DNA of 64,000 nucleotides from Candidatus Wolfebacteria bacterium RIFOXYD12_FULL_48_21 (GTDB lineage: Bacteria > Patescibacteriota > Minisyncoccia > UBA6257 > UBA9933), in the NCBI GenBank assembly GCA_001793945.1, contig MGIW01000006.1:202239-266238 (forward strand). Direction: 5' to 3'. Below, piece by piece: positions 2,014 through 64,000 of this stretch. The position numbers and the translations under genes were made by a program. Every line of letters begins with the position of its first letter. The stretch's first letter is position 1. The notes under the pieces are model-generated. The model saw only the letters and a list, made by a program, of their open reading frames with translations. It was not told the origin of the DNA and made no database searches.

Positions 2014-2186
2014 CCGATAACTAATAACCAATAACTAATAACGGAATGCGAAATGCATTTCGAGGTGTCATTCCCGCGCAGGCGGGAATCCAGTATCGGG
2101 TGTTCGAGTTCAGGTGTTGATACGCGTATCTACATAATAAGATCGGATATGTGTCCCACTAACCAATCAACTAACTATTTATCAAT

Positions 2187-5201: not shown

Positions 5202-5446
5202 GATAGGGAATTAGGAGATTTGTATTATTATGCATTATTGTATCACATTTTTCCTATTTTTGGGATAGGTGTTTATTTTATTGCCAAAGCCGCCTTTTTC
5301 CCTTACAATACGGAAGTATTTTGAGCCTATGTTATCGGTTATTGGTCATAGATTATCGGTTATTCGGAGGGTCGCATCCAGCCCAAGGCTGGTCCGCCCT
5401 GGGTAGAAGTTGTTATAGGTTATAGGTTATTGGTTATCAGTTATTT

Positions 5447-5533
5447 GGAGGGTTCGCATAGTGGTCGATTGCGCTCGCTTGGAAAGCGGGTATACCGCAA
5501 GGTATCAAGAGTTCGAATCTCTTACCCTCCGCC
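5447..5533 (+). tRNA. tRNA-Ser (anticodon GGA)
   Basis: Acceptor GGAGGGT/ACCCTCC, anticodon loop TTGGAAA, long variable arm, T-arm GAGTTCGAATCTC, discriminator G then CC. Confidence 0.8.
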
Positions 5534-5600
5534 TTCGTCCGCAGTAGCGGACTTCGGCGGACACAGTCCGCAAAGAAGTCTGCGAAGGCGGAATCCGCTT
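5534..5600. repeat. nested hairpin / MITE-related element immediately 3' of tRNA-Ser
   Basis: gccttcgtccgcagtagcggacttcggcggacacagtccgcaaagaagtctgcgaaggcggaatccgc: two tandem GTCCGC/GCGGAC hairpins inside an outer CGCCTTCG/CGAAGGCG stem; shares cgaaggcggaatcc with the MITE core. Confidence 0.5.
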
Positions 5601-5633
5601 GTTGTATCTTTGAGAAAAAAGCATTATAGATTT

Positions 5634-5870
5634 ATGCACACAGTTTACATTTTAAAATGTGCTGATGGAAAGCCATACACAGGTTGTACGGAAAATTTAG
5701 AAGAAAGATTGCAGAGGCATAATAATGGGCATGTTCCGGCCACAGAAAATCGGCGCCCAGTTAAGCTAATTATATACACTGTATTTTTTGATAAATATAA
5801 AGCATTTGAATTCGAGAAGTATTTAAAGTCTGGGTCGGGCAGGGCATTTATAAATAAGCATTTGATCTAA
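5634..5870 (+). CDS. GIY-YIG nuclease superfamily protein (YhbQ/UPF0213-like)
   Basis: VYILKCADGKPYTGCTENLEERLQRHNNG matches the GIY-YIG motif; the 146-aa ORF overlaps the tRNA, so the internal ATG at 5634 is used. Confidence 0.7.
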   Translation: MHTVYILKCADGKPYTGCTENLEERLQRHNNGHVPATENRRPVKLIIYTVFFDKYKAFEFEKYLKSGSGRAFINKHLI

Positions 5871-6654: not shown

Positions 6655-6706
6655 TGAGAAACGAATGCGTGACCGTTGCGCTTTCATAGGGTATACTGTA
6701 AGCAAT

Positions 6707-6961
6707 ATGACTCGTTGGCAAAAACTGGAGGTATTTCTTGAATTGCTTATTTTTGGAATAGTCATCGGCATCATCGAGGATCTGATTGCGATCAAGTTCG
6801 CCACCGGCGAGCCGATAACATGGGGTGTGGTTGGTATCGTTGTTTTGGTGGCGATTCCCTTCGCTATTTTAGGGGAGGTCGTTCTCGATAGAATAGACTT
6901 CGCCAGCATATTACAACGCATGTTCGAGAAAAAGAAGCCCGAGGATGACACTATGCAATAA
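6707..6961 (+). CDS. hypothetical small membrane protein
   Basis: Hydrophobic stretches (LIFGIVIGIIEDLIAIKF, VVGIVVLVAIPFAILG); start uncertain. Confidence 0.3.
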   Translation: MTRWQKLEVFLELLIFGIVIGIIEDLIAIKFATGEPITWGVVGIVVLVAIPFAILGEVVLDRIDFASILQRMFEKKKPEDDTMQ

Positions 6962-7014
6962 AGATAGTGTGGGTGTGTCTGGGTCTATTTATTAAATACT
7001 TTCGATTATGAAGC

Positions 7015-7125
7015 TCGGTATGTCATCCCGAGCGCAGTGAAACGAAGCCGAGGGATCTGCAGTAAAAAACAGATTCCTCGACTACTCCGCCTGCTGGCGT
7101 ATATGCTCGGAATGACAATAGTCAG
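7015..7125. mobile_element. MITE-like palindromic element (gtcatccc...ggaatgac family)
   Basis: tgtcatcccgagcgcagtgaaacgaagccgagggatctgcag...ctcggaatgacaa with terminal inverted repeats. Confidence 0.6.
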
Positions 7126-7164
7126 GCTTATGCCAAGATGAGGGGGTTGCGTAATTCAAAGTAA

Positions 7165-7200
7165 ATACATCTTTTATTTAAAAAGGCCTGCATATGCAGG
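7165..7200. terminator. perfect palindrome aaaaggcctgcatatgcaggcctttt (copy 1)
   Basis: Identical copy at 7717-7745; both flank the 7230-7625 gene. Confidence 0.7.
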
Positions 7201-7229
7201 CCTTTTGGGTGCCGGTTGACGGTCCATTA

Positions 7230-7625
7230 TTACTCACCACCGTACATTTCCGCGAACAATCTTTCCATGGTCCAGCCAATGATGACCGCCCGCAGAATAA
7301 ATCTGACTTCGCGCCCCGGTGAAAAGGGCATCCGGGGCGTTTCCTTAAATGAGATCCTTACCCCGCAGAGCATGTATGCCTCTCCGTTGTGATAGATGCG
7401 GATCTCGGTCAACGCATCTTCATCGTGGGGTGTGGCGATCGTTACCCTGTTGACGCCGCCCTCGCGGAGGATGATCCTTGACCCCATTTCGCGGTACTGC
7501 TCATGGTACTTCACCGGAAGGCGCAATTTCCGGTGAAGCGATTTGTTCGCTTCCTCGAATTGTTTCCATAGGCACCTCATCGGGCCTATGCCAGTGCATG
7601 ATGCTGCCCCTATCTTGGTCGTCAT
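7230..7625 (-). CDS. hypothetical protein
   Basis: 131-aa ORF bracketed by two identical palindromic hairpins. Confidence 0.4.
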   Translation of the reverse strand: MTTKIGAASCTGIGPMRCLWKQFEEANKSLHRKLRLPVKYHEQYREMGSRIILREGGVNRVTIATPHDEDALTEIRIYHNGEAYMLCGVRISFKETPRMPFSPGREVRFILRAVIIGWTMERLFAEMYGGE

Positions 7626-11104: not shown

Positions 11105-11300
11105 CCCTTGTTGTCATTCCGAGTGAAGCCGTACTCGGCGCAACCGAGGAATCTGTAGTAGTTACCATGTTATTAACATAATCCATGACCCAAAGGTTGT
11201 CATTCCGGACTTGCCTCGCGCTGAGCTTGTCGAAGTGATCCGGAATCCAGAGCCTGTGTCATTCCGGCGGAGGCCGGAATCCAGATTTACTATTTTTTAC
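11105..11300. repeat. cluster of MITE-like hairpin units (gtcattcc...ggaatccag family)
   Basis: ttgtcattccgagtgaagccgtactcggcgcaaccgaggaatctg; gtcattccggacttgcc...atccggaatccag; gtcattccggcggaggccggaatccag. Confidence 0.7.
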
Positions 11301-11313
11301 TGCTAAACCACCC

Positions 11314-11339
11314 ATGACCCAAGACGAAGCATTTGCAAT
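11314..11339 (+). repeat. direct repeat copy of the first 26 nt of the helicase gene (atgacccaagacgaagcatttgcaat)
   Basis: Identical to 12170-12195; ~20 nt upstream also similar. Confidence 0.8.
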
Positions 11340-11393
11340 TTTGTACGAGTAATAAACTCGATACTCTGTATCAGATATTATATAATAAAGCTT

Positions 11394-11879
11394 ATGGTGA
11401 ATAATTATGCGTTTATTGATAGCCAAAATCTGAATCTTGCAATTAAAGACCAAGGATGGAATCTTGATTTTGAACGGTTCAGGATTTATTTAAAAGACAA
11501 ATATAGTGTGACAAAGGCGTTTATTTTTATTGGATATATACCAACGAATCAGCCTCTTTATACGGCTTTACAAAAATATGGATATATATTGGTATTCAAA
11601 CCTACGCTTGAATTGCCTGATGGTAGAGTGAAGGGGAATGTTGATGCCGAAATGGTATTGCATACCATGATCGAATATTCGAATTATGAAAAAGCATTAA
11701 TTGTGACGGGGGATGGTGATTTTTATTGTCTAGTGGATCACTTAAAAAACAATGGGAAATTAGCCGGAGTAATGATACCCAATGGGAAGAAATATTCTTC
11801 ATTGCTCAGAACATTTACTGGAGATACTATTTTTATGAATAATCTCAAGGAGAAGTTGGGATATAATAAAAATATGTAA
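11394..11879 (+). CDS. NYN-domain (LabA/PIN-like) ribonuclease family protein
   Basis: AFIDSQNLNLAI...VDAEMVLHTM...ALIVTGDGDF has the acidic-residue pattern of NYN/LabA domains. Confidence 0.7.
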   Translation: MVNNYAFIDSQNLNLAIKDQGWNLDFERFRIYLKDKYSVTKAFIFIGYIPTNQPLYTALQKYGYILVFKPTLELPDGRVKGNVDAEMVLHTMIEYSNYEKALIVTGDGDFYCLVDHLKNNGKLAGVMIPNGKKYSSLLRTFTGDTIFMNNLKEKLGYNKNM

Positions 11880-12009
11880 AAAAAGAGGCATAGCCGCGGG
11901 ACGGAACCCTTTGGTTAGCCTCTCATCGTGATAGTTAAAGTATAACAATTGGTCAATATATGTCAATATAAATCAATCCCGCACCTGCGGGATTTATGCT
12001 ATTATAGGT

Positions 12010-12140
12010 ACACATTTATGACCCTCGCATTGTCATTCCCGTCCTTCGACAAGCTTAGGATAAAACTTCGAGCGGGAATCCAGAGCCTGTGTCATTCCGA
12101 GCGGAGTGGTACTCCATGTAGTCGAGGAATCTGCAGTATT
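12010..12140. repeat. MITE-like hairpin units
   Basis: cattgtcattcccgtccttcgacaagcttaggataaaacttcgagcgggaatccagagcctgtgtcattccgagcggagtggtactccatgtagtcgaggaatctgcag. Confidence 0.7.
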
Positions 12141-12169
12141 CGTAATTTTTACTACAAACCTTATTACCT

Positions 12170-13894
12170 ATGACCCAAGACGAAGCATTTGCAATCTTAA
12201 AGACCGGACGAAATGTGTTTTTGACAGGAGAGCCGGGGAGTGGCAAGTCCCACATGGTCAATCGCTATGTGGAGTATTTGCGGTCCTGCGGGGTTGAACC
12301 GTCCATTACAGCGTCCACGGGCATTGCCGCCACGCACATCGGCGGCATGACGATCCACTCGTGGAGCGGCATCGGGGTACGGACCCGGCTGACCGACCAC
12401 GACCTTGAATTGATGCTCGACAAGGACCGGCTGGTCAAGCGGCTTCGGGCCGCGCGGGTGTTGATCATCGATGAAGTTTCCATGCTTTCGGGCGACACAC
12501 TGGCGGTGGTGGAGCAGGTTTGTCGCGTCTTGCGCGACTCCATAGAGCCCTTTGGAGGGCTTCAGGTGGTCCTGGTGGGCGACTTTTTTCAACTGCCGCC
12601 CATTATGCCAAAAGCCGACCAAGAGCGTGTAAAAACGATTTCTCTCGATGGGGAAGATCAGTGGTCACCCTTTGCATTCATGGGTACGGCGTGGGCAAAA
12701 GCGGACCCGACCATCTGCTATCTGACCGAACAGCATCGGCAGGAAGACACAGAGTTTTTAAAGGCACTTTCGGCCATCCGTCGCGGGGAGGTTACCGACG
12801 AGGTGCGCGAATGTTTTGCGGGCCGGCGTGTGGAGCCCGCCGTTGCGGACGATCATACCAAACTATATACGCACAATTTCGCGGTCGATAAGCTCAACGA
12901 TGCGCGGCTCGCAAAACTGCCGGGCGAGCGGCGCGACTTCGCGATGAAGAGCGAAGGCGCCCCGACGATCGTGGAGGGGTTGAAGCGTGGATGCTTGTCG
13001 CCCGAAACACTTTCGTTGAAATTGGGGGCGAAGGTCATGTTCACCAAAAACAGCGTCGAGGGAAAGTTCGTCAACGGCACCATCGGCGAGGTGGTCGGAT
13101 TTTCGCCCGTTACGGGCTATCCGCAGATCACGATGCACAACGGCAAGACGATCGAACCCGAGTTGGGCGAATGGAGTATCTATGACGGCATGAAGATGCT
13201 TGGCATGATCAAACAAATTCCGCTTCGCCTTGCCTGGGCCATCACGGTCCACAAGAGCCAAGGCATGTCGCTCGATACTGCAATCATGGATCTTTCACAA
13301 GCGTTTGAATACGGACAGGGGTATGTCGCGCTATCACGCGTGCGTACGCTCGCGGGGTTATATCTGTTGGGGTATAACGAACGGGCACTCGAAGTGCATC
13401 CCGATGTGTTTGCGAAGGATATCCAGTTCCGCGCCGCGTCCGAAAAGGCCCGGTATGACTTCGCCGCACTCGGCGAAGAACAAATCGCCGATCTGCAACT
13501 GCAGTTCATCAACACCATCGGCGGAGCCGTGGGCATGGGCATGCAGGCGCCTGCGCCCAAGGTTTCGACCTACGACGCAACGGCCGAGCTGGTCGCGCAG
13601 AAATTGTCGGTTGCCGACATGGCAGAAAAGCGTGGCGTAACCGAAGCCACGATCATCACGCATTTAGAAAAGCTGGTTGCCAATGGAACCCTCGATCCTG
13701 CAGCCGATTTGGAATACCTAAAGCCCGAACGCCGCCGGTTCGTGACCATGCAGGCAGCACTCGAAAAGACCTATAAAAAGAAGGGGAGCATGCTATTAAC
13801 CCCCGCCCAGTCCCTCCTCGGCCCCGGGTTTACCTTTGAGGAATTGCGGGTTGCGAGGCTGTTTTTGGGGAAAACCGAAGATCCGTCATCCTGA
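12170..13894 (+). CDS. Pif1/RecD2-family ATP-dependent DNA helicase with C-terminal HTH_40-type domain
   Basis: Walker A GEPGSGKSH, Walker B LIIDEVSML, motif QHRQ; C-terminal LSVADMAEKRGVTEATIITHLEKLV helix-turn-helix module. Confidence 0.75.
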   Translation: MTQDEAFAILKTGRNVFLTGEPGSGKSHMVNRYVEYLRSCGVEPSITASTGIAATHIGGMTIHSWSGIGVRTRLTDHDLELMLDKDRLVKRLRAARVLIIDEVSMLSGDTLAVVEQVCRVLRDSIEPFGGLQVVLVGDFFQLPPIMPKADQERVKTISLDGEDQWSPFAFMGTAWAKADPTICYLTEQHRQEDTEFLKALSAIRRGEVTDEVRECFAGRRVEPAVADDHTKLYTHNFAVDKLNDARLAKLPGERRDFAMKSEGAPTIVEGLKRGCLSPETLSLKLGAKVMFTKNSVEGKFVNGTIGEVVGFSPVTGYPQITMHNGKTIEPELGEWSIYDGMKMLGMIKQIPLRLAWAITVHKSQGMSLDTAIMDLSQAFEYGQGYVALSRVRTLAGLYLLGYNERALEVHPDVFAKDIQFRAASEKARYDFAALGEEQIADLQLQFINTIGGAVGMGMQAPAPKVSTYDATAELVAQKLSVADMAEKRGVTEATIITHLEKLVANGTLDPAADLEYLKPERRRFVTMQAALEKTYKKKGSMLLTPAQSLLGPGFTFEELRVARLFLGKTEDPSS

Positions 13895-14170
13895 ACTTGT
13901 TTCAGGATCTGGGCGGGGGTCATTCCCGCGAAGGCGGGAATCCAGTATCCCCGCATTGTCATTCCGGCCTCCGAGCCGGAATCCAGTATTTGTGTCATTC
14001 CCGTGAAAACGGGAATCCAGTATCCCCGTATTGTCATACCGGCCCGTTCGACAGGCTCAGGGTAAAACTCCGGCCGGTATCCAGCGCATTGTCATTCCTG
14101 CAAAAGCAGGAATCTACTTCGCATTTTTCGCATTGTCATTCCGGCCTCCGAGCCGGAATCCATCCCCACT
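13895..14170. repeat. tandem array of about seven MITE-like hairpin units
   Basis: Units gtcattcc-[cgcgaaggcg / ggcctccgagcc / cgtgaaaacg / tgcaaaagca]-ggaatccag separated by tatccccgcatt-like linkers; preceded by tcatcctgaacttgtttcaggat hairpin. Confidence 0.8.
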
Positions 14171-14291
14171 CCATAACCGTGAAAACATGCCATTGTACGG
14201 CCACTTTTCACGGTTATGGACGCAAAACCGTGAATGATCGTTTTCGTGACGTTAGTAAAATGGTTGATGCTTTCCAATCCCTCGTACTAAC

Positions 14292-14321
14292 TTGACAGTT
14301 TATTCATGTGTACGCTATTAT
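14292..14321 (+). promoter_or_regulatory. sigma-70-like promoter TTGACA-18-TATTAT upstream of Phd/RelE pair
   Basis: TTGACA 14292-14297, TATTAT 14316-14321, overlapping gtac...gtac palindrome. Confidence 0.5.
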
Positions 14322-14327
14322 GTACAT

Positions 14328-14687
14328 ATGGATAGCAAGACAACAATTTCAATTTCCGAAGCACGGAAGAAAATATTCGATATTGCCACCGAGGTACAGG
14401 CTCCCGGTAAGCACTATACATTAACTGAAAAAGGCCGACCAAAGGCGGTTATTATGTCTGCCGAAGAGTTTGAATCGTGGACGGAGACCATGGAAATCAT
14501 GCGTGAATTTCCTGACATTAAAAAAGATATTGCCCGTGCCGAGCGGGAATATAAGAGTGGTAATTATATAACCCTTGAAGATCTCTTGGAAAAAGAGGGG
14601 TATGTGTTAGCGGGTAAGACATCTAAAAACTATGCAGTATCGGATCATTCTGCCAAAAAGCGTACAAAAGGAGCTCGAAAAGCTTGA
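14328..14687 (+). CDS. Phd/YefM-family antitoxin
   Basis: ISISEARKKIFDIATEV...HYTLTEKGRPKAVIMSAEEFESWTETMEI is the Phd/YefM fold; unusually long C-terminal extension overlapping the toxin start. Confidence 0.6.
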   Translation: MDSKTTISISEARKKIFDIATEVQAPGKHYTLTEKGRPKAVIMSAEEFESWTETMEIMREFPDIKKDIARAEREYKSGNYITLEDLLEKEGYVLAGKTSKNYAVSDHSAKKRTKGARKA

Positions 14688-14883
14688 TAAGAAGATTAGA
14701 ATGCGGGTGATTGTAACCTTGCAGGAATTAAGCAAAGATCCTTTTGCCGGGAAAAAGTTGCAAGGAGAACACGCAGGCCAGTGGTCGGTACGCGCATGGC
14801 CATATCGGGTCATCTACAGGATAAACAAAGGCGAGCTCGTTGTACTTGTTATTCGCATCGCTCATCGGCAAGGAGCGTATTAA
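14632..14883 (+). CDS. RelE/ParE-family toxin
   Basis: MQYRIILPKSVQKELEKL...YRVIYRINKGELVVLVIRIAHRQ. Confidence 0.65.
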   Translation: MQYRIILPKSVQKELEKLDKKIRMRVIVTLQELSKDPFAGKKLQGEHAGQWSVRAWPYRVIYRINKGELVVLVIRIAHRQGAY

Positions 14884-15150
14884 AAACCCCCCCGCATTGT
14901 CATTCCCGCCCATTCGTCCGCCGGCTGGCGGATCAGGGTAAACTCCGGCGGGAATCCGTGGCCTGTGTCATTCCCGTGAAAACGGGAATCCAGTATCCCC
15001 GCATTGTCATCCCGTGCTCCGACACGGGATCCAGATCATGTGTCATTCCCGTGAAAACGGGAATCCAGTATCCCCGCATTGTCATTCCGGACTTGATCCG
15101 GAATCCAGTATTTGTGTCATTCCCGTGAAAACGGGAATCCAGAGTAGAGG
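14884..15150. repeat. tandem array of MITE-like hairpin units
   Basis: gtcattcccgtgaaaacgggaatccagtatccccgcattgtcat... repeated; includes ccgccggctggcgg core hairpin. Confidence 0.8.
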
Positions 15151-15199
15151 GGAAAATGGTACCCGACCCCTTTAATGACAACAAATTATTTCTAATGCA

Positions 15200-15275
15200 A
15201 ACAGATAAGATCCCTCATCCCTGCGGGATTTTTGGTTGGTTTATAAATGGGGTGGGATTTGGTAAGATTGAGTTG
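15200..15275 (+). promoter_or_regulatory. conserved terminator+leader module (copy b): atccctgcgggatttttggttggtttataaatggggtgggatttggtaagattgagttg
   Basis: Hairpin atccc-tgc-gggat plus T-run, followed by a conserved 40-nt tail; related copies at 19725-19770, 20345-20400, 21265-21325 and a partial one at 11965-11995. Confidence 0.6.
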
Positions 15276-17596: not shown

Positions 17597-17717
17597 AAAT
17601 AGACGGATATTTTCTCCAAGGAAAACCGCAGCGAGATATTGGCTGTAGTAAAGGGGAAGGGAAATATGACCACCGAGATTGCCCTGATAAAAATTCTGCG
17701 GGAGGAGAAAATAACCG

Positions 17718-17987
17718 GTTACCGACATGGCAGAAAAGCGTGGCGTAACCGAAACCACGATCATCGCCCATTTGGAAAAGCTGGTTGCCAATGGAACCCT
17801 CGATCCTGCAGCCGATTTGGAATACCTAAAGCCCGAACGCCGACGATTTGTAACTATGCAAGCCGCGCTTGAAAAGACCTACAAAAAGAAGGGGAGCATG
17901 CTATTAACCCCCGCCCAGGCACTCCTTGGGCCTAGTTTTACATTTGAGGAGTTGAGGGTGGCACGGTTGTTTTTAATTACCCCGTGA
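17718..17987 (+). pseudogene. duplicated 3' fragment of the Pif1-like helicase gene (HTH_40 tail), displaced copy
   Basis: MAEKRGVTETTIIAHLEKLVANGTLDPAADLEYLKPERRRFVTMQAALEKTYKKKGSMLLTPAQALLGPSFTFEELRVARLFL is about 95% identical to helicase residues encoded at 13611-13880; lacks the helicase core. Confidence 0.75.
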
Positions 17988-19709: not shown

Positions 19710-19779
19710 GCTTAATAGTCACTCCTGCGGGATTTTTGGTTGGTTTCTAAATAAGGTGGAATTTGGTAAAATTTTAAAA

Positions 19780-21257: not shown

Positions 21258-21363
21258 CTTGTAAAAATCCCGCATTCCTGCGTGATTTTTAGTTGGTTTA
21301 TAAATAGGGTGGAATTTGGTAAGCTTGGGAGTAATAAAGGTTACCCATGAAATTATTGGAATT

Positions 21364-24978: not shown

Positions 24979-25560
24979 ATGAACCTCAAACCCCTCATAC
25001 AACTGACCATTGCAATTGCAATAGCCGAACTCGCGGGGATCATTGGGTCATTTTTTACTGTGGGTGCTATAGATACTTGGTATGCGGGGATCGTTAAGCC
25101 TGCGTGGAATCCGCCCGCTTGGGTGTTTGGGCCGGTGTGGGTGGTGTTGTATGCGATGATGGGGGTTGCGGTTTGGTTGGTGTGGAGGAAGATGGATTCC
25201 CGGCGCATTGCAAGGAGCGGGGAGATCCTGAAACAAGTTCAGGATGACAATGCAAGCGGGAATGACAAACTAATAAAGGCAGCACTCTGGGTTTTTGGGG
25301 TGCAGTTGGGTTTGAACGCCCTGTGGTCCACCATCTTCTTTGGCTTGCACAGCCCGGGATGGGCTTTTGTAGAGATCGTTCTGTTGTGGGCCGCCATCGT
25401 CGGTACGATCGGCGTGTTTTGGCGCATCTCGAAGCCTGCGGCGTTGCTGTTGGTCCCTTACATTTTGTGGGTCAGTTTTGCAGGGTATTTGAACTACACC
25501 ATTTGGGATTTGAACAAGATCGACGAGCAAATGGTGTTTTGCACTGCCGATGCCATGTAA
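24979..25560 (+). CDS. tspO: TspO/MBR tryptophan-rich sensory protein, carrying an in-frame MITE-derived insertion
   Basis: KPAWNPPAWVFGPVWVVLYAMMG...WSTIFFG...LVPYILWVSFAGYLN; the inserted segment SRRIARSGEILKQVQDDNASGNDKLIK is encoded by atcctgaaacaagttcaggatgacaatgcaagcgggaatgacaa. Confidence 0.8.
   Translation: MNLKPLIQLTIAIAIAELAGIIGSFFTVGAIDTWYAGIVKPAWNPPAWVFGPVWVVLYAMMGVAVWLVWRKMDSRRIARSGEILKQVQDDNASGNDKLIKAALWVFGVQLGLNALWSTIFFGLHSPGWAFVEIVLLWAAIVGTIGVFWRISKPAALLLVPYILWVSFAGYLNYTIWDLNKIDEQMVFCTADAM
25222..25268 (+). mobile_element. MITE-family element inserted in-frame within tspO
   Basis: gatcctgaaacaagttcaggatgacaatgcaagcgggaatgacaa matches the intergenic copies at 30130-30175 and 13895-13925. 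Confidence 0.7.
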
Positions 25561-27025: not shown

Positions 27026-27039
27026 TAGAGGGGATACGG

Positions 27040-27230
27040 TATAGGGTATAGGGTATATGGTATAGGGTATGGGAGGGGAGAGGAGAGGAGAGGAGGTATA
27101 AAGTATAAAGTATACGGTATATGGTTGGTATGGGAGAGGAGAGGAGGTATAAAGTATAAAGTATACGGTATATGGTATAGGGTATGGGAGGGGGATTTCA
27201 AATTTCAAATTTCAAATTTCAAATTAAAAT
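27040..27230. repeat. tandem low-complexity repeats (GGTATAGGGTAT-type, GGAGAGGAGAGGAGG, and (GATTTCAAAT)4)
   Basis: Direct duplication ggtataaagtataaagtatacggtatatggt x2; four GATTTCAAAT repeats at about 27198-27230. Confidence 0.8.
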
Positions 27231-27231
27231 A

Positions 27232-27345
27232 CTGGATTCCCGTCGGATCCGCCGGCTGGCGGACCCGTGCTGCGACACGGGGCCCGCAGTTTGGGAATGA
27301 TAGAACTCTGGATACCGGCCTCCGCCGGTATGACAATGCGGGATG
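27232..27345. mobile_element. MITE-like element (ggattcccgtcgg...ccggcctccgccggtatgacaat family)
   Basis: ctggattcccgtcggatccgccggctggcggacccgtgctgcgacacggggcccgcagtttgggaatgatagaactctggataccggcctccgccggtatgacaatgc. Confidence 0.7.
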
Positions 27346-30099: not shown

Positions 30100-30175
30100 T
30101 GGATTCCGGCCTCCGCCGGAATGACAATACGGGAATTCAGATCCTGAAACAAGTTCAGGATGACAATTTATCCAC
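30100..30175. mobile_element. MITE-like element
   Basis: tggattccggcctccgccggaatgacaatacgggaattcagatcctgaaacaagttcaggatgacaat. Confidence 0.7.
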
Positions 30176-33429: not shown

Positions 33430-33475
33430 GGATACCGGCCTCCGCCGGTATGACACAAAGAAAAGGCGAGGATGA
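33430..33475. repeat. MITE fragment
   Basis: ctggataccggcctccgccggtatgacac. Confidence 0.5.
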
Positions 33476-36134: not shown

Positions 36135-36390
36135 CTCTGCTAACGCACATTTCGGACAAAAAAAGAAGCGCAACGCTTGATGGTTATGAGGGGGTTTGTC
36201 ATTCCGAGCGCAGCGGAGCGGAGCCGAGGAATCTGCTGTCACTAACAGCTACAGATCCCTCGTCCGCCAACCCTGCCTGCCGGCAGGCAGGTGGCGGATC
36301 GGGATGACACAAGCCACATCACTTCTCAGCTAAAGACAGATTTCATGCGAATTGCAGTCCGAATTTGTCCGAAATGTGCGTTAGCGGAGC
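36135..36390. mobile_element. ~255-bp element bounded by 26-bp terminal inverted repeats, with a nested MITE-family core
   Basis: ctctgctaacgcacatttcggacaaa (36135-36160) and tttgtccgaaatgtgcgttagcggag (36365-36390) are reverse complements with one mismatch; interior carries gtcattccgagcgcagcggagcggagccgaggaatctg...cgggatgacac. Confidence 0.65.
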
Positions 36391-45317: not shown

Positions 45318-47201
45318 ATGGCAAAGATTCTTGGTATTGATTTAGGAACGACCAACTCCGCAATGGCGATCATCGATGGCGGTGAGCCGCGTGTGTTGGA
45401 AAATCATGAAGGAAACAGAACAACCCCTTCTATCGTGGCTGTTAGCAAGGCGGGCGAGCGCCTCGCAGGATTGCTTGCAAAGCGACAGGGTGTGGTCAAT
45501 CCGAAAAATACTATTTTTTCGGTGAAGCGTTTTATCGGTCGCAAATTCAGCGATCCGGAAGTACAGCATGATAACGCATGGCTTCCGTTCGACATGCGGG
45601 AGTCTTCTACAGGCGGCGTAGAAGTACAAATGGGGGACCGCTGGTACAAGCCGGAAGAGATATCCGCGATGATCCTTTCAAAATTGAAGGCTGATGCGGA
45701 AGCGAAGGTCGGGGAAACCATCAACGAGGTGGTCATTACGGTGCCCGCGTATTTTGACGATTCCCAGCGCCAGGCGACAAAAAATGCCGGCGAAATCGCA
45801 GGTTTTACCGTAAAGCGCATCATCAACGAGCCGACTGCGGCTGCGCTTGCATATGGATTGAACAAGCAAAAGAATGAAAAGATTGTAGTATACGATTTTG
45901 GCGGCGGAACATTTGATGTTTCGGTATTGGAGATCGAGGGCGGTGAAGACGGACTGGTCAAGGTGTTGGCGACCGGGGGCGATACGCACCTCGGCGGTGA
46001 CGATTTCGACAAGACCATCATCGAGTATCTGGTGAGCGAATATAAAAAGCAGGACGGGATCGATCTTTCAGGCGATTCGCTCGCGTTACAGCGGTTGAAA
46101 GAAGTTGCCGAGCGCGCAAAGCATGAATTGTCAACTGCGTTTGAAACGGAGATCAACATCCCGTATATCACTTCCGACGCATCGGGTCCGAAGCACTTTT
46201 TGATGAAGATGACCCGTGCGAAGCTTGAAGAGCTTGTTGGGCCGCATATCGACAAGTCTATCGAGATAGCCAAGCGCATCGTAAAGGATGCAGGGTTGCA
46301 GATTTCAGATATCAATGAAGTCGTGCTTGTCGGCGGACAGATCCGCATGCCGAAGATCCATGAAGCGGTAAAAAACCTATTCGGCAAGGAGCCACACAAA
46401 GGCATCAACCCCGACGAAGTGGTCGCGATCGGTGCGGCAGTGCAAGCCGGCATTTTTCAGGGAGACATAAAGGATGTATTGTTGCTTGATGTTACCCCGT
46501 TGTCTTTTGGCATCGAAACGATGGGTGGCGTATTCACGCCATTGATCGAAAAGAACACGACCATCCCAACCCAAAAGTCGCAGGTGTTTTCGACCGCGGC
46601 GGACAATCAGACTTCCGTTGAGATACATATTTTGCAGGGCGAGCGGCCGATGGCTACCGACAATAAAACATTGGGTCGGTTTATGCTCGACGGTATTCCG
46701 CCGGCACCGCGCGGTATTCCGCAAGTTGAAGTTTCGCTTGATATCGATGCAAACGGCATCTTGAATGTTTCTGCAAAAGACAAGGCGACCGGAAAGGCAC
46801 AGTCGGTACGCATTGAAGCGTCAACTCAGCTGTTCAAGGAAGAAATAGAAAAATTGAAACAGGAAGCGGCGGTACATGCCGAGGAAGACGCAAAAAAGCG
46901 AGCCTTGATAGAGGCGCGCAATCATGCCGAGCAGCTGTTGTATACCGCCGAGAAGTCGCTCAAAGATGTGGGCGATAAAATTTCCGATGATATTAAACAG
47001 GGTGTGCAAGCCGCCATCGATGCATTGAAGGCCGCAAAGGACGGCGAGGACAGCGAAGCCATCGTTGTGAAGACGGAAGCGCTTTCTACCGAGCTTCAAA
47101 AAATAGGCTCCGCGATGTATACTCAAAAGGATGCATCCGCCCCACAAGAACCGGGCGAAACACCTAACGAAGGCGATACCACTCATGGATCTGACCAATA
47201 A
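45318..47201 (+). CDS. dnaK: chaperone DnaK (Hsp70)
   Basis: [42 protein letters not shown]. Confidence 0.95.
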
Positions 47202-55494: not shown

Positions 55495-55580
55495 GTCATC
55501 CTGAATTTATTTCAGGATCTCTTGGTGATATCAAACAGATTCTGAATCCGCCGGCTGGCGGATCAGAATGACAAATCGAG
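55495..55580. mobile_element. MITE-like element
   Basis: gctgtcatcctgaatttatttcaggatctcttggtgatatcaaacagattctgaatccgccggctggcggatcagaatgacaaatcg. Confidence 0.7.
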
Positions 55581-62962: not shown

Positions 62963-64000
62963 TATGTCAAATCTTCTCGAACAGGTAAAGCAATTTCCGG
63001 ATAGCCCCGGAGTTTATCGATTCCTTGATGCAAAAGGGGGTATTTTGTATATCGGCAGGGCTACATCGCTGCGCAAGCGGGTGGGGAATTATTTTACCAA
63101 GCGCATCGATGCGCGCATTGCGGAAATGGTATCGCTTGCACGGGATGTGCTGTATGAGCAGACCGATACTGTATTGGAAGCAGTCATCCTTGAGGCTAAC
63201 CTTATAAAAAAGCATTGGCCGAAATACAATGTAAAGGACAAGGACAATCGGTCATTTCTTTATATCGTAATTCCGAAAGCGGGGATAGATTCCCGCCGGA
63301 GTTTACCCCGTGCTGTGACACGGGGCCCGCAATTTCGGAATGACAGAGGGGGCTCGGCCGATTATCCGAAACCGCTCATCGTGCGGCATCGTGAATTGGA
63401 AAAGTTTTCCGCGGTCAAGGCGGATATCTTTGGACCGTATCAAAGCGTTACATTGATCAAAAACGCATTGAAGATCATTCGCAGAATATTTCCGTACGGC
63501 ACCTGTACGCCCCATAGTGCCTCTGTAAAGTCGCCGGCGGGCGACCGCGTTGCAGGTAAGCCCTGCTTTGATTATCAGATCGGATTGTGCCCGGGTGCAT
63601 GTGTTGGGGCTATTTCAAAAAAAGAGTATCAAAAAAATATTCGCAACATTGTACTCCTGTTGTCGGGTAAAAAGGAGCTGCTGCTCAAGCGGCTTGCCAA
63701 GGCGCATCCTGAAAAGGCGGTGAGCTTGAAGCATATTCAGGATGTTTCATTGATCACGCGGGACGAACTGGTGCGCAGACAGGTGGACGCGCATCGCATC
63801 GAAGGATATGACATATCGCATTTGACCGGTAAGGAAACATATGGCTCGATGGTCGTGTTCACCGATGGTGAACCAGACAAGGAGGCCTATCGGTTGTTTG
63901 CCATAAAAGAAGCCGTGGCGGGCGACGATTTGCATGCACTCGAGGAAATGCTGGTGCGACGATTTCGCCACGCAGAATGGGACATGCCCGATTTGGTCAT
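62963..64000 (+). CDS. uvrC: excinuclease ABC subunit C (N-terminal part, runs off window), with in-frame MITE insertion
   Basis: Own translation: MSNLLEQVKQFPDSPGVYRFLDAKGGILYIGRATSLRKRVGNYF (GIY-YIG)...EANLIKKHWPKYNV..., Cys-rich region, then continuous reading frame to the window end; not in the ORF track because there is no in-window stop. Confidence 0.85.
63286..63352 (+). mobile_element. MITE-family element inserted in-frame within uvrC
   Basis: gatagattcccgccggagtttaccccgtgctgtgacacggggcccgcaatttcggaatgacag closely matches the intergenic copy at 27232-27300; encodes IDSRRSLPRAVTRGPQFRNDR inside UvrC. Confidence 0.7.

Follow-up and report, generated by a model that had tools for sequence, protein, structure and literature searches.

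What kind of element are the short hairpin repeats that stand in two arrays around a Phd/RelE toxin-antitoxin cassette of Candidatus Wolfebacteria bacterium RIFOXYD12_FULL_48_21, a member of the Candidate Phyla Radiation (CPR)? The stretch of DNA analysed here (the window) comprises 64,000 nt of contig MGIW01000006.1 and is numbered from its first letter. A sequence-only reading had proposed an RNA- or DNA-hairpin function for these repeats and had named bacterial interspersed mosaic elements or repetitive extragenic palindromes (BIME/REP) and transcript stabilisers among the candidates. With a probability of roughly 0.68, the repeat units are members of the family that comprises the Neisseria Transformation Sequence (NTS), the dRS3 palindrome and the Ssn-related motif (SRM). 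The members of this family are hairpins in single-stranded DNA (ssDNA) that are cut nearby by a small GIY-YIG nuclease.

Structure of the arrays and their units

Both hairpin arrays of the sequence-only reading are present, with six units each. Their features are as follows.

13919-14160 (+): array 1, six head-to-tail units at 13919-13942, 13958-13983, 13994-14017, 14033-14081 (long insert), 14091-14114 and 14135-14160
14885-15157 (+): array 2 block of 273 nt, composed of AACCCCCCCGCATT, six units and AGAGTAGAGGGGAAAAT
14899-14956 (long insert), 14967-14990, 15006-15031, 15042-15065, 15081-15105 and 15116-15139 (+): the six units of array 2

Each unit consists of (T)GTC, a perfect stem of 8-9 bp that starts with AT(T/C/A)C, and C(CAG), and its loop is either 4-6 nt long or a long insert. 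In the alignment of the 19 short units of the whole window, all of the stem cells (152/152) are Watson-Crick and there are no G-T pairs. Both sides change in five of the eight stem pairs. The alignment contains 33 compensatory cells, compared with 7.9 +/- 2.2 in shuffles, and none of 500 shuffles reaches the observed value. When the partner column is shifted, pairing drops to 14-56%. The invariant columns are GTC-AT.C...G.AT-C, and 19 of 19 short units retain the GTC that precedes the stem and the C that follows it. The arms ATTCC/GGAAT had been described as conserved but covary as well, with ATACC/GGTAT and ATCCC/GGGAT as variants.

The ten short units of the arrays each form an 8-bp DNA hairpin, with z scores of -3.2 to -4.9 relative to dinucleotide shuffles. 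In the two long-insert units the closing stem of 9 bp persists, and the interiors pair only in part (z -0.9 and -2.5). The proposal that the variable stems are self-complementary holds for the stem cells and the short units, but only in part for the long-insert interiors. The motif GTCATHCC occurs 30 times in the window (5.25 expected), and a strict detector finds 25 units compared with 0.01 in shuffles. The divergence among the units is too great for Tandem Repeats Finder, which does not report the arrays.

The linkers are 7-12 nt long and nearly constant, as had been noted. Units with 4-nt loops (A units) are followed by TATCCCCGCATT or TATCCCCGTATT, and units with 5-6-nt loops or long inserts (B units) are followed by TATTTGT, ATCATGT or GGCCTGT. 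The A and B units alternate. Start-to-start spacing between units is 36-40 nt and the period of the A/B dimer is 74-75 nt. Positions 14960-15090 of array 2 are 86% identical to positions 13912-14042 of array 1.

No Rfam family matches the units at gathering thresholds or at E <= 10, and no T-run terminators are seen after units. Both strands fold equally well because G-U pairs are absent from the 152 stem cells. The exclusively Watson-Crick pairing, the lack of T-tracts, the occurrence of units in both orientations, the one in-frame genic unit and the lack of an Rfam match favour a constraint that acts at the level of DNA, not RNA. The proposed RNA- or DNA-hairpin function is supported in that the repeats are structure-constrained and on its DNA side, while the lack of wobble pairs and T-tracts disfavours its RNA side. 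The accompanying view that the arrays are not decayed transposons agrees with their being structure-constrained hairpin repeats. The apparent compensatory variation mostly reflects the mixing of separate subtypes, which are found again in other phyla, and not drift at orthologous sites.

Relationship to the NTS/SRM family

Chenal et al. (2025, Nat Commun, PMC11893778) define the NTS as CGTCATTCCCGCGMAVGCGGGAATCYRG, which contains the dRS3 palindrome ATTCCC-N8-GGGAAT, and also define the degenerate SRM. The SsnA protein of N. meningitidis (CAX49033.1) is a 94-aa single-domain GIY-YIG protein (CDD cd10448). It binds the motif solely as ssDNA, cuts a few nt upstream, is inactive on double-stranded DNA, RNA and the reverse strand, and leaves the RNA form of the motif unbound. 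In mutagenesis, the three nt 5' of the palindrome govern SsnA cleavage and the C just 3' of it matters most for binding. SsnA lowers the integration of NTS-bearing transforming DNA. Ssn proteins are cd10448 GIY-YIG proteins of <150 aa whose genes are usually flanked by SRMs. The motif is widely distributed, and 2% of its copies in N. meningitidis lie inside genes. Ssn and SRM are characterised mainly in Neisseria, from RefSeq genomes (PMC11893778).

When the window is searched for CGTCATTCCCGCGMAVGCGGGAATCYRG with the criterion of that paper (<=1 mismatch), two sequences match with one mismatch: TGTCATTCCCGCGCAGGCGGGAATCCAG at 2066-2093 and GGTCATTCCCGCGAAGGCGGGAATCCAG at 13918-13945. The SRM pattern HGTCWYN(0-2)YYVSBRHN(0-5)WNVSBRGN(0-2)RNCYNB has seven matches, compared with 0.22 +/- 0.44 in dinucleotide shuffles. 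Six of the seven lie in units (2066, 13993, 14966, 15005, 15041 and 15115), four of them in array 2. The exact dRS3 formula occurs in six units (2067, 13919, 13994, 14967, 15042 and 15116). The invariant GTC and the 3' C of the window units coincide with the positions on which SsnA depends for cutting and binding.

The exact 28-mer TGTCATTCCCGTGAAAACGGGAATCCAG is found in at least 118 genome stretches (L011-L128) from more than 15 phyla. The hosts include many CPR groups, Desulfobacterota, Nitrospirota, Chloroflexota, Bacteroidota, Verrucomicrobiota, Planctomycetota and Rickettsia endosymbionts. A scan of viral contigs gives three matches, on which no weight is placed. The linkers of the window are not found in the 118 loci. 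In a Bdellovibrionales locus (L125), but not in the window, there is a NIME-like array (Neisseria intergenic mosaic element) with a period of about 250 nt. The compact tandem A/B arrays look lineage-specific because convergent doublets dominate elsewhere and the window linkers are absent there. A phmmer comparison of all open reading frames (ORFs) of the window with those of the 118 loci gives no recurrent neighbour family.

The repeat family was already described in 2025, and the arrays are a real finding but a rediscovery. The CPR host, the compact tandem A/B architecture, the block-level polymorphism and the in-frame insertion into a gene are new here.

By homology of the motif, the units would be short oriented DNA palindromes that are active when the GTCAT-bearing strand is single-stranded. 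Each unit would fold into a hairpin of 8-9 bp, and an Ssn-family nuclease, a small protein with a single GIY-YIG domain, would recognise this hairpin together with the 5' GTC and the 3' C. The nuclease would cut the single strand a few nt upstream, which in the arrays would fall in the constant linkers. A head-to-tail array would act as a battery of ssDNA cut sites because the cut would come just upstream of each unit. In Neisseria, such sites leave incoming transforming DNA with a shorter stretch of homology, and less of it is integrated. We infer that an Ssn nuclease in this genome cuts the units and affects ssDNA recombination or uptake. Most likely, Ssn-type nicking would tune recombination where accessory cassettes begin and end.

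The partner nuclease and the evidence against family membership

The window contains one small GIY-YIG gene, which is the sole candidate for a partner.

5634-5870 (+): single-domain GIY-YIG nuclease gene, 78 aa, Pfam E 1.4e-16

The nearest solved relatives of its product are the UPF0213 proteins 1zg2 and 1ywl. No canonical unit lies within 500 bp of the gene. As a cognate Ssn it is disfavoured, since the association test argues against it and three homolog loci are without flanking units. The SRM pattern has one match in 80 metagenome loci of its subfamily (L132-L211, 415 kb), compared with 183 matches in 835 kb of loci that bear the 28-mer. Beside the 28-mer, a GIY-YIG gene is found in 2 of 118 loci (L067 and L094). 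The L067 protein as a query gives 48 matches, none of them on the Wolfebacteria contig. The Pfam results for the ORFs examined, in the window and 10 kb downstream, contain no RAYT (REP-associated tyrosine transposase) or other Y1 transposase, no IS110 and no integrase.

Several results weigh against membership in the NTS/SRM family and the mechanism that would follow from it. The subfamily of the 5634-5870 gene is not associated with units, and only 2 of its 80 loci hold any GTCAT unit. The same Pfam results contain no other small GIY-YIG gene. With each cluster counted once, the units show no strand bias with respect to GC skew or to the direction of flanking genes, the latter being a check that the sequence-only reading had suggested. 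Between about half and about 25 of the roughly 32 units fall outside the strict SRM pattern, though they share its head and tail; the unit types outside it include GGCC-CTCCGA-GGCC, long-insert and GAGCG units. Tight tandem arrays are atypical, and adjacent units in the 118 loci from other taxa form 47 convergent, 5 divergent and 2 tandem pairs. A change of the palindrome sequence of N. meningitidis that kept its structure abolished SsnA activity (PMC11893778), and a single enzyme may therefore be unable to act on every subtype.

The 5634-5870 gene has surroundings of its own. Members of its subfamily are 60-90% identical across Patescibacteria and lie <=250 nt downstream of a tRNA-Ser gene, with four anticodons, in 43 of 76 evaluable loci. 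The tRNA-Ser and the GIY-YIG gene are separated by a spacer of about 100 nt, which is conserved in three loci (window 5447-5870, L004 9834-10237 and L006 9831-10243). Its inner hairpin covaries (TCCGC/GCGGA, CTCGC/GCGAG and CCCGC/GCGGG). In its outer stem, the 3' acceptor end of the tRNA pairs with a downstream complement, and this is not a GTCAT-type unit. The tRNA-Ser/GIY-YIG locus could represent an element that is homing or linked to tRNAs and that has structured DNA or RNA of its own.

Distribution of units in the window

The repeats had been described from the two arrays. Both stand, but the family is not confined to them. The window contains about 32 units, six in each array and about 20 elsewhere. 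All but one (31/32) are intergenic, and the sole exception is in frame within a TspO gene. The further units and related features are as follows.

2067-2090 (+): single unit just downstream of ssb, matches the NTS with one mismatch and the SRM pattern
7022-7116: convergent doublet of the 'GAGCG..CGA' subtype, 7022-7058 (+) and 7071-7116 (-)
11113-11281 (+): head-to-tail cluster of three units (11113, 11199, 11258) upstream of an NYN-domain gene
12032-12132 (+): two clustered units, at 12032 and 12091, that separate the NYN gene from a helicase gene
13885-13909 (+): sister-subtype unit GTC-ATCCTGAA-cttgt-TTCAGGAT-C, z -3.4
14170-14220 (+): inverted repeat with perfect 16-bp arms (TCCATAACCGTGAAAA / TTTTCACGGTTATGGA) around a 19-nt loop, between array 1 and a Phd promoter-like site (14292-14321)
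25195-25266 (-): nested composite unit of 72 nt, in frame in the TspO gene
27311-27334 (-): single unit with covarying arms ATACC/GGTAT
30102-30164 (-): two head-to-tail units (30102, 30140) between convergent genes
33431-33454 (-): single unit between pheS and pheT
36198-36308: convergent doublet beside tRNA-Leu, 36198-36234 (+) and 36253-36308 (-)
55495-55572: convergent doublet, 55495-55519 (+) and 55538-55572 (-)
63287-63344 (-): long-insert unit

The sister subtype is found at 13885 (+), 25224 (-), 30140 (-) and 55495 (+). Its copy at 13885-13909 (GTCATCCTGAA-cttgt-TTCAGGATC) precedes array 1 and covers the stop codon of the PIF1-like helicase gene together with the final codons before it. 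The 'GAGCG...CGA' subtype (7022, 7071, 11113, 12091 and 36198) retains the head and the tail of the family. Three of these five units (11113, 12091 and 36198) were folded, and they fold no better than shuffles. The inverted repeat at 14170-14220 is probably a derived unit because its arm is 87% identical to the arm of an A unit.

The NYN-domain (PIN-like nuclease) gene at 11394-11879 has unit clusters on both sides, with three units upstream and two downstream. In one strain variant (L001) a second NYN-like gene follows a unit (6680-7462). There is no general link between units and NYN genes. A quick homology screen places an NYN ORF near the 28-mer in 1 of 118 loci.

The composite unit at 25195-25266 contains an GTCATCCTGAA unit within the loop of an ATTCCCG unit (z -4.8). 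Its host is a TspO/MBR gene (24979-25560, Pfam E 6.9e-53), the product of which has about 21-24 extra residues in the loop between the transmembrane helices TM2 and TM3. Two relatives that are 88% identical (P0132 and P0133) are without the insert. Two others (P0130 and P0131) have different inserts in the same loop, with the peptides PRQARNDR and DSRLRGND...GLRRYDN. From the likeness of these peptides to translated units, the inserts are apparently unit-derived. The nesting and the in-frame insertion suggest that the units are mobile. The TspO gene of the window stops early (CAA>TAA at 25558-25560), and its homologs continue with ...MQCPDGTFVGRTGPNCEFQCP.

Accessory island and strain variation

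The arrays lie in an accessory island. It opens with an HTH-SocA/Panacea pair (HTH, helix-turn-helix) and an NYN gene. Next come a PIF1-like helicase with an HTH_40 domain at its C-terminus, array 1, Phd-ParE and array 2, and then a MazG-like gene, an unknown gene and a Dcm methylase. The two genes bracketed by the arrays, and a further gene of the window, are as follows.

14328-14687 (+): Phd/YefM antitoxin
14632-14883 (+): ParE/RelE-type toxin
45318-47201: DnaK gene, the product of which, like TspO, is identical to a protein of Candidatus Wolfebacteria bacterium RIFOXYD1_FULL_48_65 / RIFOXYD12_FULL_48_21

The 3' end of the helicase gene (13608-13866) has a copy of 259 bp at 17716-17974, after the Dcm methylase gene, that is 88.8% identical. 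The duplicated part comprises the last ~86 codons (the HTH_40 domain) and its copy lies 3.8 kb downstream. A fragment of the same 3' end is present in L001 (6431-6535), where it is followed by two hairpin units. These copies suggest repeated acquisition of cassettes by recombination at that end of the gene. The sequence-only reading had the arrays bracket the Phd/RelE cassette, which is correct, and had them sit at the boundaries of the inserted segment, which fits only one of them. In the segment bounded by the helicase duplicates, array 1 is at the edge and array 2 is internal.

The helicase gene as a query retrieves near-identical contigs from anammox-reactor and groundwater metagenomes. 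In the strain variants L010 and L001, the 273-nt block of array 2 (14885-15157) is absent and the flanks are 99.9-100% identical to those of the window. The stop codon of ParE runs straight into GGTACCTGACC in both variants. Different downstream cassettes start exactly at the array 2 junction in L001. The arrays coincide with boundaries of strain-variable cassettes. The breakpoints of L001 and L010 lie at the array edge and at GGTACCYGACC, not inside a unit. As a general cassette junction, GGTACCYGACC was rejected, with a single occurrence in the window. Since arrays 1 and 2 share only 86% identity, the polymorphism of array 2 does not stem from recent duplication at the locus. It reflects either a clean deletion or the uptake of the block from a diverged lineage. 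The arrays punctuate the island (SocA/Panacea TA, NYN, PIF1 helicase, Phd-ParE, MazG and Dcm) and are themselves gained or lost as blocks between strains.

A module of about 60 nt, GGTTTATAAATGGGGTGGGATTTGGTAAGATTGAGT..., is repeated upstream of consecutive island genes (the MazG-like gene and the genes at 19756 and 21316). Its sites are 15238-15255, 19742-19759 and 21295-21312, and positions 15207-15270 resemble 19724-19773 and 21264-21327. The module may be a shared promoter or leader. The window also holds long tandem arrays of heptanucleotides (2011-2042, 2623-2799, 5412-5445 and 27029-27225). Just upstream of an M48 peptidase gene, (TGAGGTA)~8.6 at 2623-2682 adjoins (ATCTCCC)~15 at 2693-2799, and these two appear to be approximate reverse complements. 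Arrays of (AGGGTAT), (AGGTATA) and (ATTTCAA) occupy 27029-27225, and (GTTATAG)n precedes tRNA-Ser.

Alternative explanations

Four other explanations fit part of these data. According to the first, the units form an autonomous, actively spreading family of GTCAT hairpins that is independent of the canonical, SRM-flanked Ssn. The A/B arrays would then have arisen by distinct amplification or insertion and would act as recombination substrates at cassette boundaries. The nesting of units within loops, the in-frame insertion and the gain or loss of a whole array fit this explanation, as do the three different, apparently unit-derived inserts at one TspO loop in related lineages. It is nevertheless unlikely.

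An RNA function is a rather slim prospect. The units would be 3' untranslated-region stabilisers, attenuators or terminators of the preceding genes, and the hairpins are indeed stable. The island units (11113-15139) are all co-oriented with the upstream genes and lie just past stop codons. Transcript stabilisation, which had been put forward before, has no specific support. T/U tracts and an Rfam match are both lacking, and G-U pairs are absent from the stems. About one third of the clusters are either anti-oriented or placed in divergent promoter regions (25195, 27311, 33431, 36198 and 55495/55538), and one unit is translated within TspO. SsnA leaves the RNA form of the motif unbound (PMC11893778). 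Local regulatory selection does not readily account for a 28-mer that is identical in more than 15 phyla.

It is very improbable that the units are REP/BIME repeats, or REPINs (REP doublets forming hairpins), mobilised by a RAYT, which is a domesticated IS200/IS605 Y1 transposase. Like such repeats, the units are palindromic, lie between genes and carry an oriented head on the 5' side. The window has three convergent doublets (7022/7071, 36198/36253 and 55495/55538), and this arrangement, shared by 47 of 54 adjacent pairs elsewhere, is REPIN-like. The nesting and in-frame insertion suggest mobility. The head of the units differs, as it is (T)GTC followed by a perfect stem that begins with AT, not a GTAG/GGAG tetranucleotide before an imperfect palindrome. 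Units also fit the NTS/SRM definition with <=1 mismatch. No Y1_Tnp, RAYT or other transposase is present in the Pfam matches of the window and 10 kb downstream. A RAYT-like gene, for which the sequence-only reading had suggested a search elsewhere in the genome, is not seen in the ~74 kb examined. The BIME/REP comparison remains a fair analogy for the lifestyle of the units, but their head is GTC-AT and not GTAG, and their family is NTS/dRS3/SRM with an Ssn partner.

The idea that the units are recombination sites folded from single strands and delimiting cassettes, analogous to the attC sites of integrons, is barely tenable. Structure is kept while sequence varies, same-orientation clusters part consecutive cassettes (TA, NYN, helicase, Phd-ParE and MazG), and the cassette content varies between strains exactly at array junctions. 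However, the Pfam results for the window contain no tyrosine recombinase or integrase. The units are perfect stems of 24-28 nt, compared with ~57-141 nt for attC, and have neither R/L boxes nor extrahelical bases. They also lie beside housekeeping genes (ssb, pheS/pheT and tRNAs) and inside TspO, and the L001/L010 breakpoints do not fall within a unit. The clustered regularly interspaced short palindromic repeats (CRISPR) are dismissed, as the 'repeats' vary, the 'spacers' are constant and cas genes are absent.

Comparison with known systems

Membership in the NTS/SRM family places this motif, down to the identical 28-mer, at high density in a CPR genome of ~0.9 Mb (~32 units in 64 kb). Compact multi-hairpin arrays here mark strain-variable toxin-antitoxin and defence cassettes. 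CPR genomes are small, and this genome could therefore be a compact natural system for questions about SRMs. Those left by the 2025 paper concern the multiplication of SRMs, subtype-specific nucleases and the role of SRMs outside naturally transformable pathogens. The units also explain recurrent spurious ORFs (with peptides such as WIPAFAGMT or LDSRFHGND) and 'extra loops' in real proteins.

The window units share several traits with REP/BIME and REPIN repeats: they are palindromes scattered between genes, a 5' head gives them orientation, they form clusters and convergent doublets, and they presumably act as ssDNA hairpins. They differ in the head motif, and the known partner of SRMs is a GIY-YIG protein whereas that of REPs is an HUH Y1 protein. 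Rickettsia palindromic elements (RPEs) are similar in that the composite unit is in frame within TspO and is translated as an extra loop, and the exact 28-mer is also present in genomes of Rickettsia endosymbionts (L055, L080, L099 and L105). Unlike the units, RPEs are ~100-150 bp long and have consensus sequences of their own.

The arrays border strain-variable genes, much as NIMEs do with minimal mobile elements. In NIMEs, repeat sequence (RS) elements of 50-150 bp lie between the dRS3 copies, whereas the linkers of the window are 7-12 nt. The window differs from other NTS/SRM systems in its CPR host (Candidatus Wolfebacteria), in the head-to-tail spacing of 36-40 nt with alternating A/B dimers, in its many stem subtypes, and in having no SRM-flanked ssn gene in the 74 kb examined. 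The window units share with that family the oriented hairpin with a GTC head and a 3' C, the intergenic, multi-copy and clustered occurrence near particular genes, and the wide spread over phyla.

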